Sequence record: PZ179880.1
DNA from: a phage
Reading direction: 5' to 3' (one strand)
DNA: 64,000 nt
The notes under the pieces: model-generated
Seen by the model: only the letters and a program-made list of their open reading frames with translations
What the model was told of the DNA's origin: nothing
The model's database searches: none
Translations under genes and position numbers: made by a program
Shown here: positions 6,565-58,465 of the stretch, piece by piece
Layout: every line of letters starts with the position of its first letter
Numbering within the stretch: position 1 is the first letter of the stretch

Positions 6565-7785
<1,221 letters not shown>

Positions 7786-35379: not shown

Positions 35380-35418
35380 GATAGTTGTATAGTACCACAG
35401 TATGCTTTGGTTGTAAAC
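35380..35418 (-). promoter_or_regulatory. early promoter cassette (PeSL-type), copy B, for motA
   Basis: GTTTAC -35, TGGTACTAT -10, conserved leader; A/T-rich UP region and terminator immediately upstream. Confidence 0.55.
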
Positions 35419-38524: not shown

Positions 38525-38556
38525 TAATAATACCACAGAGGAACAGTCTTGTAAAC
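38525..38556 (-). promoter_or_regulatory. early promoter
   Basis: GTTTAC, 18 bp, TATTAT preceded by TGG. Confidence 0.45.
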
Positions 38557-39242: not shown

Positions 39243-39291
39243 GATAGTTGTATAGTACCACAGTCCTTGTGGTATGTAAACTGTTTTGTGA
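39243..39291 (-). promoter_or_regulatory. early promoter cassette (PeSL-type), copy C
   Basis: GTTTAC, TGGTACTAT, conserved leader CAACTATCAACTGATAC; 7-bp hairpin TACCACA/TGTGGTA. Confidence 0.5.
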
Positions 39292-43740: not shown

Positions 43741-43773
43741 TTAATTATACCACATCCTTGTGGTAAAGTAAAC
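43741..43773 (-). promoter_or_regulatory. early promoter between gene 39 and rIIA.1
   Basis: GTTTAC and TATAAT with CCACA/TGTGG hairpin in spacer. Confidence 0.45.
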
Positions 43774-45593
43774 TATTGGCTCATCCATTCTTTACGAAGG
43801 TCAGCGTTATCTCCCATGAGCATTTCAAAAAGCTCTTTCCAGTTCTCAGGAAGTTTAACAACATCATATACTGGGTTTTGAATCATCTCACGATATTCAG
43901 ATTTTTCCAAAGAGCCAAGTCCCTTAATATAACGGATGCTATGTTTAGGTAGAGCATCTTTGGCACTCTCATATTCAGCGACTGTATAAAACCATTCTTG
44001 TTTTTTACCGACCTGAGCGATGATTACAGGAGTTTTGACGAAGCGAATTCTTCCTTGTTCAAACAGTTCTGGCCAATTACTAAAAAATCCGAGCAGAGAA
44101 GGATAAATGCTTCCTAGACCATCATGGTCAGCATCGGTCATAATAGCAATATTATGATAATTCAAGTTTTCGGCTTTTTCACCAAGAACTAATCCAGTGA
44201 TTGCGCAAATATCAAACAGTTCTTTGTTTTTAAGCATATCAGCATATGACATACCCCAACTGTTGAGAACTTTACCACGTAATGGATAACCACCATGAAG
44301 TTCTTTATCACGAACATCAATAAGATATCCGATAGCAGAATCGCCCTCAGTCAAGAAAAGAGTAGTATCAGCATCTTTACCACAAAGATTCGCTTTAATA
44401 TGTTTATGAACCTTAGCTTTAGAAGCCTTTTTAGCTGCTTTAGTTTCTGCTGCTTTTTCTGCCGCCAATTTACGAGCCAAAGCAGCTTCAATAATTGGCA
44501 TTAAAATTGCTTCATTATTTAAAATAGCGCGTGAAATCTTTTTAGCATCAAGCTGAATATGACTACGAATTTCACCAAATGGAGAAGTCAAACGCTCTTT
44601 AGTTTGAGAATCAAATCGCATGTTTTTCATATCACGAACAAACATGACGATAGTCAAACATTCTTTAACACGTGCTTTAGTTACATCAATTTTGAACTTA
44701 CGTTTGATTTGTGGAATAAGGTCTTCACAAATATCATCCATAACACAGTCAATATGATGGCCACCATTCTTAGTATGAATGTTATTGACGTATGTTAATT
44801 GACGAAAACCATCCGGTGAACGACCAACCGCAATAGAACAATTTTCTTGTTCTTGAACGATAGCATGCTCATCATATTGGCGTGCATATTTCTTAAAATT
44901 ACCCTGAACCTTTTTACCATTAAAGGTAAATTGAATATCAGGATAAACTACTGCAAGTGTCTGGAGACGATCCAGTGTAATGTCAAGATAAACCTGAGAC
45001 AGCTCATTAGTTTCAAATGACATAAAATCAGGAATGAAAGTAACACGAGTTCCTTTCCATTTTCCAGGAATATCTTCCCATGATTTATTTTCCATGCCAT
45101 TTGAACAACGAACTACAATATTATTTTGACCGTCGCCAGTTTCACCGACAAACATCACAGAAAAAATGTTAGTTAAACTAGAACCAACACCGTTCATACC
45201 ACCAGTGACGCGTTCTTTGTCATCACCAAAGTTACCACCTGCTTTTGGAATAGTCCAGGCAGCAACAGGACCAGGAATTTCTTCACCAGTAGGTGTTTTA
45301 ACCATTGCCTGTGGAATACCACGACCGTTATCTTCAACTGTTACTTGGTTGTTTTTGATAGTAACATTAATTTTATTTGCGAATTTAAACTTAGTACGAA
45401 TACCTTCATCTACTGAGTTATCGATAATTTCATCAATAAGCTTAACAAGACCAGGTACATACTGAACACTTTCCCATTTACCAAACAGAAAGCGCTCATG
45501 CATTTCATTAGCAGAAGAGCCAATATACATGCCGCTACGCTTTTTGATATGTTCAATATCGCTCAGAATTTTAATTTCATTCTTAATCATCAC
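43773..45593 (-). CDS. 39: DNA topoisomerase II large subunit (fused gp39+gp60 equivalents)
   Basis: 606 aa; GHKL ATPase N-terminus and Toprim (EGDSA, DADHDG) in one continuous frame. Confidence 0.9.
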   Translation of the reverse strand: MMIKNEIKILSDIEHIKKRSGMYIGSSANEMHERFLFGKWESVQYVPGLVKLIDEIIDNSVDEGIRTKFKFANKINVTIKNNQVTVEDNGRGIPQAMVKTPTGEEIPGPVAAWTIPKAGGNFGDDKERVTGGMNGVGSSLTNIFSVMFVGETGDGQNNIVVRCSNGMENKSWEDIPGKWKGTRVTFIPDFMSFETNELSQVYLDITLDRLQTLAVVYPDIQFTFNGKKVQGNFKKYARQYDEHAIVQEQENCSIAVGRSPDGFRQLTYVNNIHTKNGGHHIDCVMDDICEDLIPQIKRKFKIDVTKARVKECLTIVMFVRDMKNMRFDSQTKERLTSPFGEIRSHIQLDAKKISRAILNNEAILMPIIEAALARKLAAEKAAETKAAKKASKAKVHKHIKANLCGKDADTTLFLTEGDSAIGYLIDVRDKELHGGYPLRGKVLNSWGMSYADMLKNKELFDICAITGLVLGEKAENLNYHNIAIMTDADHDGLGSIYPSLLGFFSNWPELFEQGRIRFVKTPVIIAQVGKKQEWFYTVAEYESAKDALPKHSIRYIKGLGSLEKSEYREMIQNPVYDVVKLPENWKELFEMLMGDNADLRKEWMSQ

Positions 45594-46262: not shown

Positions 46263-46676
46263 TTATTCCTTAAAGTGAGCTTTCAACATCTGATACAAAG
46301 ACCATGCCTGTTCATTATTTTCAATAGTAACTTTCATTACAGGGAATTCTGTAAAATCTTCTATTTGTTCTTGCTCTTCCTGCTCTTGCTCTTCGGCTGC
46401 CTGGTATGGATTTTCCACTTCATCAAAGAACTTTGCATCGTCCGCTAAAAGACAAATATAATTTTCATCGCAAATATCTTTATATAAAAATAATGTTCTG
46501 CTAGATGTCATAATTTTAATTGGAGTTTGAAGAGAATCAACATCCAAGATTTTAAAAGGTTGCATATCTAAACGTTGTGCATAAATTTTATTCTCAGTAT
46601 GGTCTTCAATAAAAGCTTCTTGAGCTTGTTTATTTTTAAATTGATACCATTTATTAACTTCAAATTTAATAGCCAT
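46263..46676 (-). CDS. hypothetical acidic protein (goF-like position)
   Basis: 137-aa ORF with [10 protein letters not shown] tract. Confidence 0.45.
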
Positions 46677-46891
46677 TAATAAATTTCCTTCCAGTAAGTT
46701 GTACCGCCTTCAGTGATTTCACGGAATACACCGTAAATTGGTTGTTTATCACCGACTTTCTCATACACATAAACCGAAGTTAAGTGAGTAAACTTGCTAG
46801 TATGTTCCTTTTGAACTACTACCAAATCTGGATCGAATAATACATCTTCAAATTCGTTATTAGTGCAGTTCTGAACAATTTTACGTTTCAT
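46676..46891 (-). CDS. hypothetical protein (cef-like position)
   Basis: 71-aa ORF. Confidence 0.4.
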
Positions 46892-46976
46892 TACAATTTC
46901 CTCATTAATTGAACATTGGAGTGATGCGTTTCAGAAGAGTAGTAGCACCTTTGGCAAATTTTCCATTTTATTCTCC

Positions 46977-47063
46977 AAGTTGTTTTCTGTATCAGTAGTT
47001 GATATTGATATAGTACCATAATCAACTACTGATGTATATAGTTTTATGAAAAAATTTTAAACT
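46977..47063 (-). promoter_or_regulatory. promoter-like element with perfect 13-bp inverted repeat flanking the -10
   Basis: ATCAGTAGTTGAT (46981-46993) and ATCAACTACTGAT (47011-47023) flank TGGTACTAT; A/T-rich UP region upstream. Confidence 0.4.
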
Positions 47064-47552
47064 TTATGCATAGAGAGCTTTGCTATAGTGTTTAATCCAG
47101 CTTTCAGGAATGACTTTGTATGTTCCTAAAAATACCACATTATACAGCTTAACACCGTCTTCTACCCACTGATCGGTAATGTATGCGCACATAGCACGAG
47201 TATAAACAGCCGCACCATCATCTTTGATAAATTTAAATTCACAAGGAGCAATGAACTTAATAGCCTGACCGAGTTTCCACTTAAAGTCTACACCTACGTG
47301 CGAAGTATCAATCGTTTCAATTCCTTTAGCAGGAACAGCTTTCAAAAACGCAGACTCAAGAAATTTCGCGCGAACATAGCCAAACTGGGGTTTAGACTTT
47401 CCATCTTTAGGAATGATACGCACTTTTACTTCAGAATCTTCATCTTTAACACCATGTTTAAGCTGAATGCTTACAATTTCAACCAATTTTCCTGCTGCTT
47501 TAGAACGGGATTTATCAGATACACGAGCAATTTCACCAATATTAATAATCAT
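47064..47552 (-). CDS. motB: MotB-like protein
   Basis: 162 aa; position as T4 motB; paralogous to next ORF. Confidence 0.55.
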   Translation of the reverse strand: MIINIGEIARVSDKSRSKAAGKLVEIVSIQLKHGVKDEDSEVKVRIIPKDGKSKPQFGYVRAKFLESAFLKAVPAKGIETIDTSHVGVDFKWKLGQAIKFIAPCEFKFIKDDGAAVYTRAMCAYITDQWVEDGVKLYNVVFLGTYKVIPESWIKHYSKALYA

Positions 47553-48169: not shown

Positions 48170-48709
48170 TTATCTCATTTCAATAAAATCTACGAGTTCA
48201 GCATGTGATTTGCGGAACATTACTTGGTGCCCGCCAATGATAACTTCATCTTCAGGAACTTCATATACAGCGAGATAAAATCCTTTAGAAGATAATTCTT
48301 CGCGTTCTTCTCGCGTGAACCATCTCATCATATCATATTCGCTAGCGAAAGCAAAATGATAAAGAGCTATAAACCATCCTGGAATATGATATTCTACTCC
48401 AACATAATCTTTCTTGAACTTAGTATTAATTACTATATTAGCGTTTTTAACTAATAGTTTATCTTCGTGTGGTAAAGGAATTCTTTTATTATTATCGCTA
48501 TGATGCATAAAATTAGGTCTATCATAACCTACGTGTAATAACCACTCTTCGCTCCATGAATCTATTATACTCCTGTATGGTGTTATTTGAACACAAAGAT
48601 TTCGACGCATTGTTATAGCATCTTCATAATCAAGAATGCTAAACGATGATTCAACACGATAAATTTTCATTTTATTATCCTCAGTAGCTATGATGTTATA
48701 ATACCACAA
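48170..48709 (-). CDS. hypothetical protein (179 aa)
   Basis: ORF. Confidence 0.45.
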   Translation of the reverse strand: MWYYNIIATEDNKMKIYRVESSFSILDYEDAITMRRNLCVQITPYRSIIDSWSEEWLLHVGYDRPNFMHHSDNNKRIPLPHEDKLLVKNANIVINTKFKKDYVGVEYHIPGWFIALYHFAFASEYDMMRWFTREEREELSSKGFYLAVYEVPEDEVIIGGHQVMFRKSHAELVDFIEMR

Positions 48710-55749: not shown

Positions 55750-55784
55750 ATTTTATTATACCATACTCATTTTGGAAAGTAAAC
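55750..55784 (-). promoter_or_regulatory. early promoter
   Basis: GTTTAC and TGGTATAAT on minus strand, just downstream of soc terminator. Confidence 0.4.
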
Positions 55785-58435: not shown

Positions 58436-58465
58436 ATAATACCATAACAAGCTGAGAAAGTAAAC
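58436..58465 (-). promoter_or_regulatory. early promoter for nuclease-like ORF and dam
   Basis: GTTTAC, 18 bp, TATTATAAAA. Confidence 0.45.

Follow-up and report, generated by a model that had tools for sequence, protein, structure and literature searches.

Promoter and stem-loop cassettes are already known in T4-like phages, where they have been described as promoter-early stem-loops, or PeSLs (Arbiol et al. 2010, PMC2839356; Comeau et al. 2014, PMC4122927). As described for RB49/phi1, the stem-loop usually lies in the stretch that separates the -35 from the -10 or over the -10, and one stem-loop that was tested cut downstream expression about as strongly as rrnB T1 (PMC2839356). PeSLs have also been reported in the T4/PST pair (PMC4122927). 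A second kind of arrangement is found at the T4 genes e, soc, 49 and I-TevI, where a promoter is placed inside a hairpin and translation is controlled, according to a review passage that names a late promoter for I-TevI only (PMC3014915).

Here, we describe an element between motB and cef in a 64,000-nt stretch of phage DNA (the whole stretch is called the window below). An earlier reading, made from the letters alone (the sequence-only reading), had noticed a perfect inverted repeat around a -10 and proposed that it was either a repressor operator or a structure that sequesters the promoter. With a probability of roughly 0.6, we read the repeat as the stem of a 43-nt stem-loop that lies over a T4-type sigma-70 early promoter and acts as RNA, in transcripts that read through from motB.

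The window comes from a Tequatrovirus (T4-like phage), and the genes around the element are on the minus strand, in the order motB, a 172-bp gap, cef, goF and gene 39. A 261-nt query around the repeat matched 507 phage records at 80-99% identity. In T4 (NC_000866) the intergenic sequence is identical, and its arms lie at 6612-6624 and 6582-6594. Gene 39 (topoisomerase large subunit; 43773-45593, minus strand) is listed as a 606-aa ORF with a GTG start; T4 gene 39 is much shorter at 516 aa, so the window represents a relative of T4 and not T4 itself. The GenBank and RefSeq records of T4 annotate no promoter feature in the motB-cef stretch, the searchable literature yielded no 5' or 3' ends of motB-cef transcripts in T4, and the MotB paper mentions neither cef nor terminators nor hairpins. 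An Rfam scan of 46700-47300 on both strands gave no match at E <= 1. In the direction of transcription, the parts of the locus are as follows.

47064-47552, minus strand: motB, an ORF matching phrog_1671 (MotB-like, E = 3.5e-77) and annotated in T4.
47041-47060, minus strand: A/T-rich UP-like element TTAAAATTTTTTCATAAAAC, near-identical upstream of the promoters at 35397, 19075 and 39260.
47034-47039, minus strand: predicted -35 hexamer ATATAC, a degenerate GTTTAC (4/6) in register with eight other early promoters.
47021-47033, minus strand: 5' arm ATCAGTAGTTGAT of the repeat, occupying the promoter spacer (alignment and repeat search).
47006-47018, minus strand: hairpin apex TGGTA / CTA / TATCA, from the RNA and DNA folds and the promoter alignment.
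47018-47017, minus strand: predicted extended -10 TG, in the hairpin apex.
47015-47010, minus strand: predicted -10 TACTAT, in the hairpin apex.
46991-47003, minus strand: 3' arm ATCAACTACTGAT of the repeat, a leader motif found also at other promoters and, by prediction, +1 to +13 of the transcript.
46973-46976, minus strand: GGAG, the putative Shine-Dalgarno (SD) sequence of the 11-codon ORF.
46931-46966, minus strand: the 11-codon ORF MENLPKVLLLF*, whose intact gene in relatives is phrog_3720.
46676-46891, minus strand: cef, an ORF matching phrog_1354 (cef, E = 7.4e-37).

Read along the minus strand, the element runs TTAAAATTTTTTCATAAAAC t ATATAC ATCAGTAGTTGAT ta TGGTACTAT atcaat ATCAACTACTGAT acagaaaacaactt GGAG aataaa ATG. 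UP elements have a role in the T4 early-promoter consensus (PMC1524935). An alignment of nine early promoters from the window, anchored on TGGTAnnAT, places ATATAC exactly in the -35 column and the upstream arm in the variable spacer, with a gap of 18 nt, containing TGG, between ATATAC and TACTAT. The upstream arm had been taken to replace the usual GTTTAC -35; it is instead a spacer sequence, next to a degenerate hexamer in the proper column. The downstream arm had been recognised, correctly, as the leader motif of other early promoters: the early promoter near 35397 has it letter for letter, and those at 39260 and 38535 have part of it. The UP tract, TGGTACTAT and the leader are all common to the promoters at 35397, 39260 and 19075, and a 104-nt query finds two to five matching places per genome. 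Altogether, the proposal of an early-promoter variant stands as a prediction, with its parts in register with those of the eight other promoters. A generic sigma-70 scan did not call the predicted promoter; our own count gives it a score of 8/12, aided by the extended -10 and the UP tract. Transcription would start at the A at 47003, the first base of the 3' arm, because the usual distance from the -10 is 7 nt. The first intact gene that this predicted promoter would serve is cef.

Two further regularities of these promoters were observed. In many T4-like early promoters (in the window and in the Mosigvirus SF locus L070), the -10 is followed at a distance of 5-6 nt by a conserved motif, (T)ATCAAC, which presumably marks the transcription start and the initial transcribed sequence. 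In addition, a mini-hairpin CCACAAGGA(C)TGTGG recurs between the -35 and the extended -10, namely at the gene 39 promoter and a second promoter of the window (43752 and 39260, minus strand) and at the cef promoter of some Klebsiella-type phages (L054-L056).

The arms ATCAGTAGTTGAT and ATCAACTACTGAT form a perfect 13-bp inverted repeat with 17 bp between them, and enclose TGGTACTAT (minus strand) within the motB-cef gap. The repeat and its spacing were thus real as first described, but the positions given for them (46981-46993 and 47011-47023) need a shift of +10, to 46991-47003 and 47021-47033. The complementarity continues inwards, so that the full repeat has 20-nt arms (85% complementarity) around a 3-nt centre. 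As RNA, this sequence is predicted to fold into a hairpin of 20 positions per side with the -10 at its tip (-20.2 kcal/mol, z = -5.3; 0/200 shuffles equally stable). The hairpin consists of a 13-bp stem in which 4/13 pairs are G-C (counted from the sequence), a 2x2 internal loop, a 5-bp stem (UGGUA/UAUCA) and a CUA triloop, the apex having five pairs (one G.U) and the triloop. The fold prediction retains the hairpin in a 141-nt read-through context and adds a weak UUUUUCA/UGGAGAA closing helix outside it. As single-stranded DNA, the fold reaches -11.5 kcal/mol (z = -5.1), again with 0/200 shuffles equally stable.

How surprising is such a structure? In the 64-kb window it is the sole perfect inverted repeat of at least 13 bp with a loop of at most 30 nt. 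Of 200 dinucleotide shuffles, 5% contain at least one such repeat (mean 0.08), which makes the repeat alone only borderline significant. By comparison, the fold stands out more, as the z values set against this 5% indicate, and the suspicion that the palindrome was no accident is borne out by both the RNA and the DNA fold. Some of the pairing has a simpler source. The extended -10/-10 consensus (TG...AT) already sets the innermost pairs, and to that extent the promoter by itself gives the appearance of structure.

Within Tequatrovirus, the 47-nt core of the element is identical in 476/500 records. The equivalent stretch of two hairpin-less paralogous promoters, which are the only two controls for this comparison, is identical in 320/534 and 35/531 records. 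The strong conservation could stem in part from promoter constraint or from gene conversion among promoter cassettes. Directly 3' of the stem the leader varies (e.g. gatacagaaaacaac vs gatatagaaaataat), and in the one arm variant that was examined, ATCGGTAGTTGAT of vB_SsoM_113, an A-U pair becomes G.U on the sense strand. A scan for a DNA pattern with the SD as its anchor mostly gave unrelated matches.

Beyond Tequatrovirus, cef-upstream regions were gathered from INPHARED and IMG/VR. A locus search with the Cef protein alone gave 5 close loci only, and an alignment-based search reached other genera. In nearly every lineage, cef is preceded by an early promoter with an inverted repeat of different sequence around the -10, and at least six T4-like lineages besides this one have a hairpin that brackets the -10 of the orthologous promoter. 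The arms read GGTAGGGTA...TACCCTATC in the Dhakavirus type, GGTCTAT gatact ATAGACC in the Mosigvirus type and GGTGTAGG...CCTACACC in the Kanagawavirus type, with GGTGTAGGAG/CTCCTACACC and GTGTAGGAACA/TGTTCCTACAC at the Kanagawavirus-related loci L046 and L052. Marfavirus has GGTAGGAGC gtgatactat GCTCCTACC, and Moonvirus and similar loci have AGGGCTAT/ATAGCCCT and AGGGTTAT/ATAACCCT. Across the genera, the sequence, the length (6-13 bp) and the spacing of the arms all vary, and compensatory substitutions are present. The expectation that related phages would conserve the element therefore holds for the Tequatrovirus core and for the presence of a hairpin in other genera, but not for the arm sequences, which differ there.

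The covariation was quantified in 20 distinct non-Tequatrovirus T4-like cef-upstream promoters, aligned without gaps from the -35. In the helix formed by columns 10-23 and 28-41, 77% of the cells are paired, and the cells changed on both sides number 38, against 14.3 +/- 3.3 in shuffles (0/500 reach 38) and 3-16 in slid controls in which the partner was moved by 1-3 columns. RNAalifold recovers the core helix independently. Columns 13-20, whose letters the -10 does not dictate, hold 7 G.T pairs vs 2 A.C pairs, an excess that points to the sense strand as the one on which pairing is maintained. Relative to the helix of the other genera, the centre of the Tequatrovirus hairpin is shifted downstream by about 2.5 nt (i+j = 56 vs 51). 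Its stem appears to be a rebuilt analogue, made from the shared leader motif and not column-homologous to the other stems, and by its sequence it is longer and more A/T-rich than they are.

One lineage keeps the hairpin without the promoter. At the VR20-type loci (L057, L058), a hairpin GATAGGGTAattttGCCCTATC is retained between motB and cef, and neither a GTTTAC-like -35 nor TGnTAnnAT was found there. At a dexA-cef junction of another lineage (L060:616-650), the corresponding position is taken by a terminator-like hairpin with a T-run, AAAAGAGGtttacaagaCCTCTTTT, and the loop of this hairpin contains the -35 of the cef promoter. Both cases suggest a need, at the site upstream of cef, for something that acts on transcripts coming in.

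These comparisons bear directly on the idea that the palindrome is the operator of a dimeric DNA-binding protein, which would repress the early promoter by covering its -10. The perfect dyad symmetry across the -10 and the strong sequence conservation within Tequatrovirus are what such an operator would have, and the neighbouring motB encodes a DNA-binding protein, although its binding is reported as tight but non-specific (PMC7827196). Against this, the sequence of the arms, their length (6-13 bp) and their centre-to-centre distance differ between genera and only their complementarity is kept; G.T pairs are tolerated on one strand; the VR20-type phages keep the hairpin where there is no promoter to repress; and the downstream half-site occurs at the promoter at 35397 without a partner half-site. 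Compensatory changes in arms that otherwise vary indicate a nucleic-acid structure rather than a conserved protein-binding sequence, and the operator put forward by the sequence-only reading is, on this evidence, very improbable. No repressor that recognises single T4 early promoters by their sequence is known to us. An RNA-level structural explanation that fits published promoter/stem-loop cassettes thus takes the place of an unsupported 'new repressor operator'.

Could the structure act as DNA? A cruciform or hairpin extruded from the duplex might occlude or modulate the promoter, or might form a signal for recombination or replication. The element is a near-perfect 43-bp palindrome with an A/T-rich centre, its single-stranded DNA fold is as unusual as given above, and PeSL stem-loops are reported to block sequencing polymerases on a single-stranded template (PMC2839356). 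The stems of the other genera, however, are only 6-12 bp. Stems of this length are short for cruciform extrusion. Moreover, the excess of G.T over A.C implies that pairing is kept on one strand only, positions -9 to -7 of the -10 are paired in the hairpin, which would hinder recognition by sigma-70, and the VR20-type hairpin is retained without a promoter. We regard a DNA-level function as scarcely probable. In the suggestion of a cruciform or hairpin that sequesters the promoter, it is the hairpin that comes closer to the evidence, probably in read-through RNA and not as a DNA cruciform. A role through regulation of the element's own promoter, in either form, fares no better, given the G.T pairs tolerated on the sense strand and the persistence of the VR20-type hairpin without promoter hexamers. 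Put together, changing sequence with kept complementarity, wobble on one strand and promoter-less persistence speak against both an operator and a promoter-regulating device. What matters more widely is the comparative case itself: many genera keep a -10-bracketing hairpin at one and the same junction by compensatory changes, and one lineage does so without the promoter.

Under the preferred reading, an RNA stem-loop on read-through transcripts, the origin of a transcript would decide its structure. The two arms are present together only in RNA that reads through from motB, the upstream gene. Transcripts entering from motB would therefore contain both arms and fold the hairpin, whereas those begun at the element's own predicted promoter would lack the 5' arm and could not fold it. 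Most likely, the hairpin would mark where the motB message coming from upstream ends. Read-through transcription may be attenuated or paused there, and the hairpin may protect the 3' end of the motB RNA once the A-rich, GGAG-containing leader downstream is cut. The GGAG at 46973-46976 is a possible RegB cleavage motif; the reported RegB target is an intergenic GGAG with an A-rich 3' context (PMC3014915). The element would be the stem-loop half of a PeSL-type cassette, with the downstream ribosome-binding site largely outside the stem.

Conventional termination does not account for the hairpin. There is no U-run 3' of the stem in T4 (tail ACAGAAAACAAC) or in the other genera, and a terminator scan of the locus gave 0 sites, which makes canonical intrinsic termination unlikely; the element has neither the G+C-rich stem nor the U-run of an intrinsic terminator. 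RNase III processing was considered and rejected, as the T4-type stem is long enough for it and those of the other genera (9-14 bp) are too short. A replication origin was set aside, since to our knowledge no mapped T4 origin lies at the position of the element.

Instead of marking the end of a message, the hairpin could switch translation according to transcript origin, as at e, soc, 49 and I-TevI. Ribosome access to the downstream ORF would be lowered in read-through RNA by the hairpin, helped by the U-rich sequence upstream of it, and only transcripts from the element's own promoter would be well translated. The geometry of the locus does not favour such a switch. The 3' arm ends at 46991, about 15 nt before the GGAG (a distance that includes CAGAAAACAACTT, 46990-46977, 14 nt) and about 24 nt before the AUG (ATG at 46966), and the hairpins of most genera also end 8-12 nt short of the SD. 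The predicted accessibility of the SD does fall, from 0.32 to 0.11 in read-through RNA, but the change is small and depends on the weak long-range UUUUUCA/UGGAGAA helix. Furthermore, the first downstream ORF in the window and in T4 is a decayed 11-codon remnant. Some relatives are closer to a switch. Moon/Karam-type cef promoters have an outer TTTCC/GGAAA helix around the hairpin, and a Mosigvirus SF hairpin with identical core arms covers the SD (TTCTCCAGTAGTTG/CAACTACTGGAGAA). In this Mosigvirus SF element (L070:6927), the core CAGTAGTTG/CAACTACTG is that of the T4 element and the SD is included in the arms; the T4 leader resembles its leader with about 16 nt inserted between ACTG and GAGAA.

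The case for a switch is stronger at neighbouring early promoters, where a like layout is predicted to mask the SD (58444, 38535 and 48706). At the window promoters 48706, 38535, 58444 and 55763 (minus strand), the 5' arm is the spacer, the -10 falls in the loop and the 3' arm, from the leader, lies over the SD of the next gene, with hairpin z-scores of -5.5, -5.0, -2.4 and -2.0, respectively. From own transcript to read-through RNA, the predicted unpaired probability of the SD drops from 0.87 to 0.01 at 58444, from 0.73 to 0.00 at 38535 and from 0.39 to 0.00 at 48706. At 55763, the minimum-energy fold pairs the spacer with the SD, yet the predicted accessibility is not lowered (0.63 to 0.72). 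Spacers also pair best with their own leaders. The mean duplex energy with own vs other leaders is -10.6 vs -6.7 kcal/mol in the window (permutation p = 0.00075) and -8.9 vs -6.2 at the 16 predicted promoters of Mosigvirus SF (p = 5e-5). At the motB.2 promoter, the SD-masking complementarity is kept in three genera with covarying stems (TTCTCCTCATG/CATGAGGAGAA, TTCTCCTCTGGT/ACCAGAGGAGAA and TCCTCGGT.../...ACTGAGGA; loci L066/L068 of Dhakavirus, L069 and L070:19632 of Mosigvirus, and 48706 of the window). For the motB-cef element itself, all this leaves a translational switch unlikely, and we favour the boundary role over SD masking.

Taken jointly, the promoters suggest a broader idea, which we offer as tentative and with the odds somewhat against it: T4-like phages may, as a general design under selection, nest their early promoters in hairpins. 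The otherwise free spacer would encode an anti-leader or anti-SD sequence, and the fold, translation and decay of early mRNAs would depend on where they start. The motB-cef element would then be a variant uncoupled from the SD, with its hairpin kept for its own sake, even where the promoter is gone. If this is true, the classic e/soc/49/I-TevI mechanism extends to much of the early transcriptome, and T4-like phages routinely tie early expression to the transcript start site. Such a pattern would bear on immediate-early vs delayed-early control and on the engineering of T4 promoters.

The surroundings of the cassette have been rearranged repeatedly. Relatives carry an additional 208 bp or 654 bp at the motB-cef locus, which appears to be an indel hotspot, as PeSL loci are. 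The 11-codon ORF is a remnant, frameshifted, of an 89-aa gene of which many Tequatroviruses have an intact copy (e.g. L001:1345-1614); the T4 remnant lies at about 2021-2056 of L002 (minus strand). In T4 and the window, most of this gene was taken by a 208-bp frameshifting deletion between short AAAAyTT repeats. No function is assigned to the 89-aa product (phrog_3720). On the other side, in Citrobacter phage CrRp10 (L071:340-800), motB and the promoter cassette are separated by an additional motB-like paralogue (139 aa). A direct repeat of 13 bp, GCATAAAGTTTAA, bounds this insertion and puts an indel junction at the upstream edge of the cassette.

With a locus so active in recombination, the perfect 13-bp form might have no selected function at all. 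Cassette recombination, gene conversion or the correction of a quasi-palindrome by template switching could have copied the complement of the shared leader motif into an otherwise free spacer. Several observations would fit: the 3' arm is a module repeated at other promoters, the spacer is the least constrained part of a promoter, a perfect repeat is a 5% event per window, and the T4-type stem and the stems of the other genera are not homologous column for column. A mere by-product, however, would hardly explain why the orthologous promoters of many genera keep a hairpin through compensatory changes. Nor does it sit well with a 47-nt core that is invariant in 95% of the 500 Tequatrovirus records while the adjoining 3' leader varies, or with the vB_SsoM_113 arm variant, which keeps its pairing as G.U. 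We consider a by-product distinctly unlikely, and continue to prefer an RNA stem-loop acting on read-through transcripts.

We close by comparing this element with the known systems. At the e, soc, 49 and I-TevI genes of T4, as at the motB-cef element, the promoter lies in a hairpin that upstream-initiated RNA can fold; promoter-initiated RNA lacks the 5' arm in the T4 cases and, from its predicted start, would lack it at motB-cef. The e/soc/49/I-TevI cases use late promoters, and their 3' arm sequesters the SD and/or the AUG; the motB-cef promoter is an early one, its SD lies about 15 nt outside the stem, and the 3' arm does not sequester the SD or the start codon. The neighbouring early promoters at 48706, 38535 and 58444 do fit that model by prediction. 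The overlapping intrinsic terminator of L060 is alike in that its hairpin lies over an early promoter upstream of cef and faces incoming transcripts, but there a T-run follows the stem and the -35 is in the loop, whereas the T4-type element lacks a T-run and has the -10 in its loop. With the palindromic operators of dimeric repressors, the element shares perfect dyad symmetry near a -10; unlike in such operators, half-site sequence and spacing are not conserved among the orthologues and complementarity is.

The closest likeness is to the PeSL cassettes. In both, a sigma-70-like early promoter lies in an intergenic space, with an A/T-rich tract upstream of it and a stem-loop, and the space ends in the SD/ATG of the next gene; in both, too, the cassettes are repeated in the genome, share sequence and lie beside indels. 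At motB-cef, the predicted promoter comprises the UP-like tract, ATATAC, TACTAT, GGAG and ATG in register with eight promoters; a stable fold lies over it, with orthologous hairpins that covary; extended sequence is common to other promoters of the window; and there is a gene loss directly downstream and a paralogue insertion directly upstream. The differences lie in the details. The published T4/PST stem-loops are just upstream of the promoter, whereas the motB-cef stem brackets the -10 and its 3' arm is the predicted transcript start; the stem is A/T-rich instead of poly-G/poly-C and has no U-run; and terminator activity and mini-circle recombination are published features of PeSLs, while the motB-cef copy is known from its sequence, where indel junctions hint only indirectly at recombination. 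Most likely, then, the motB-cef element is a PeSL-type, promoter-embedded RNA stem-loop that matches the published cassettes.
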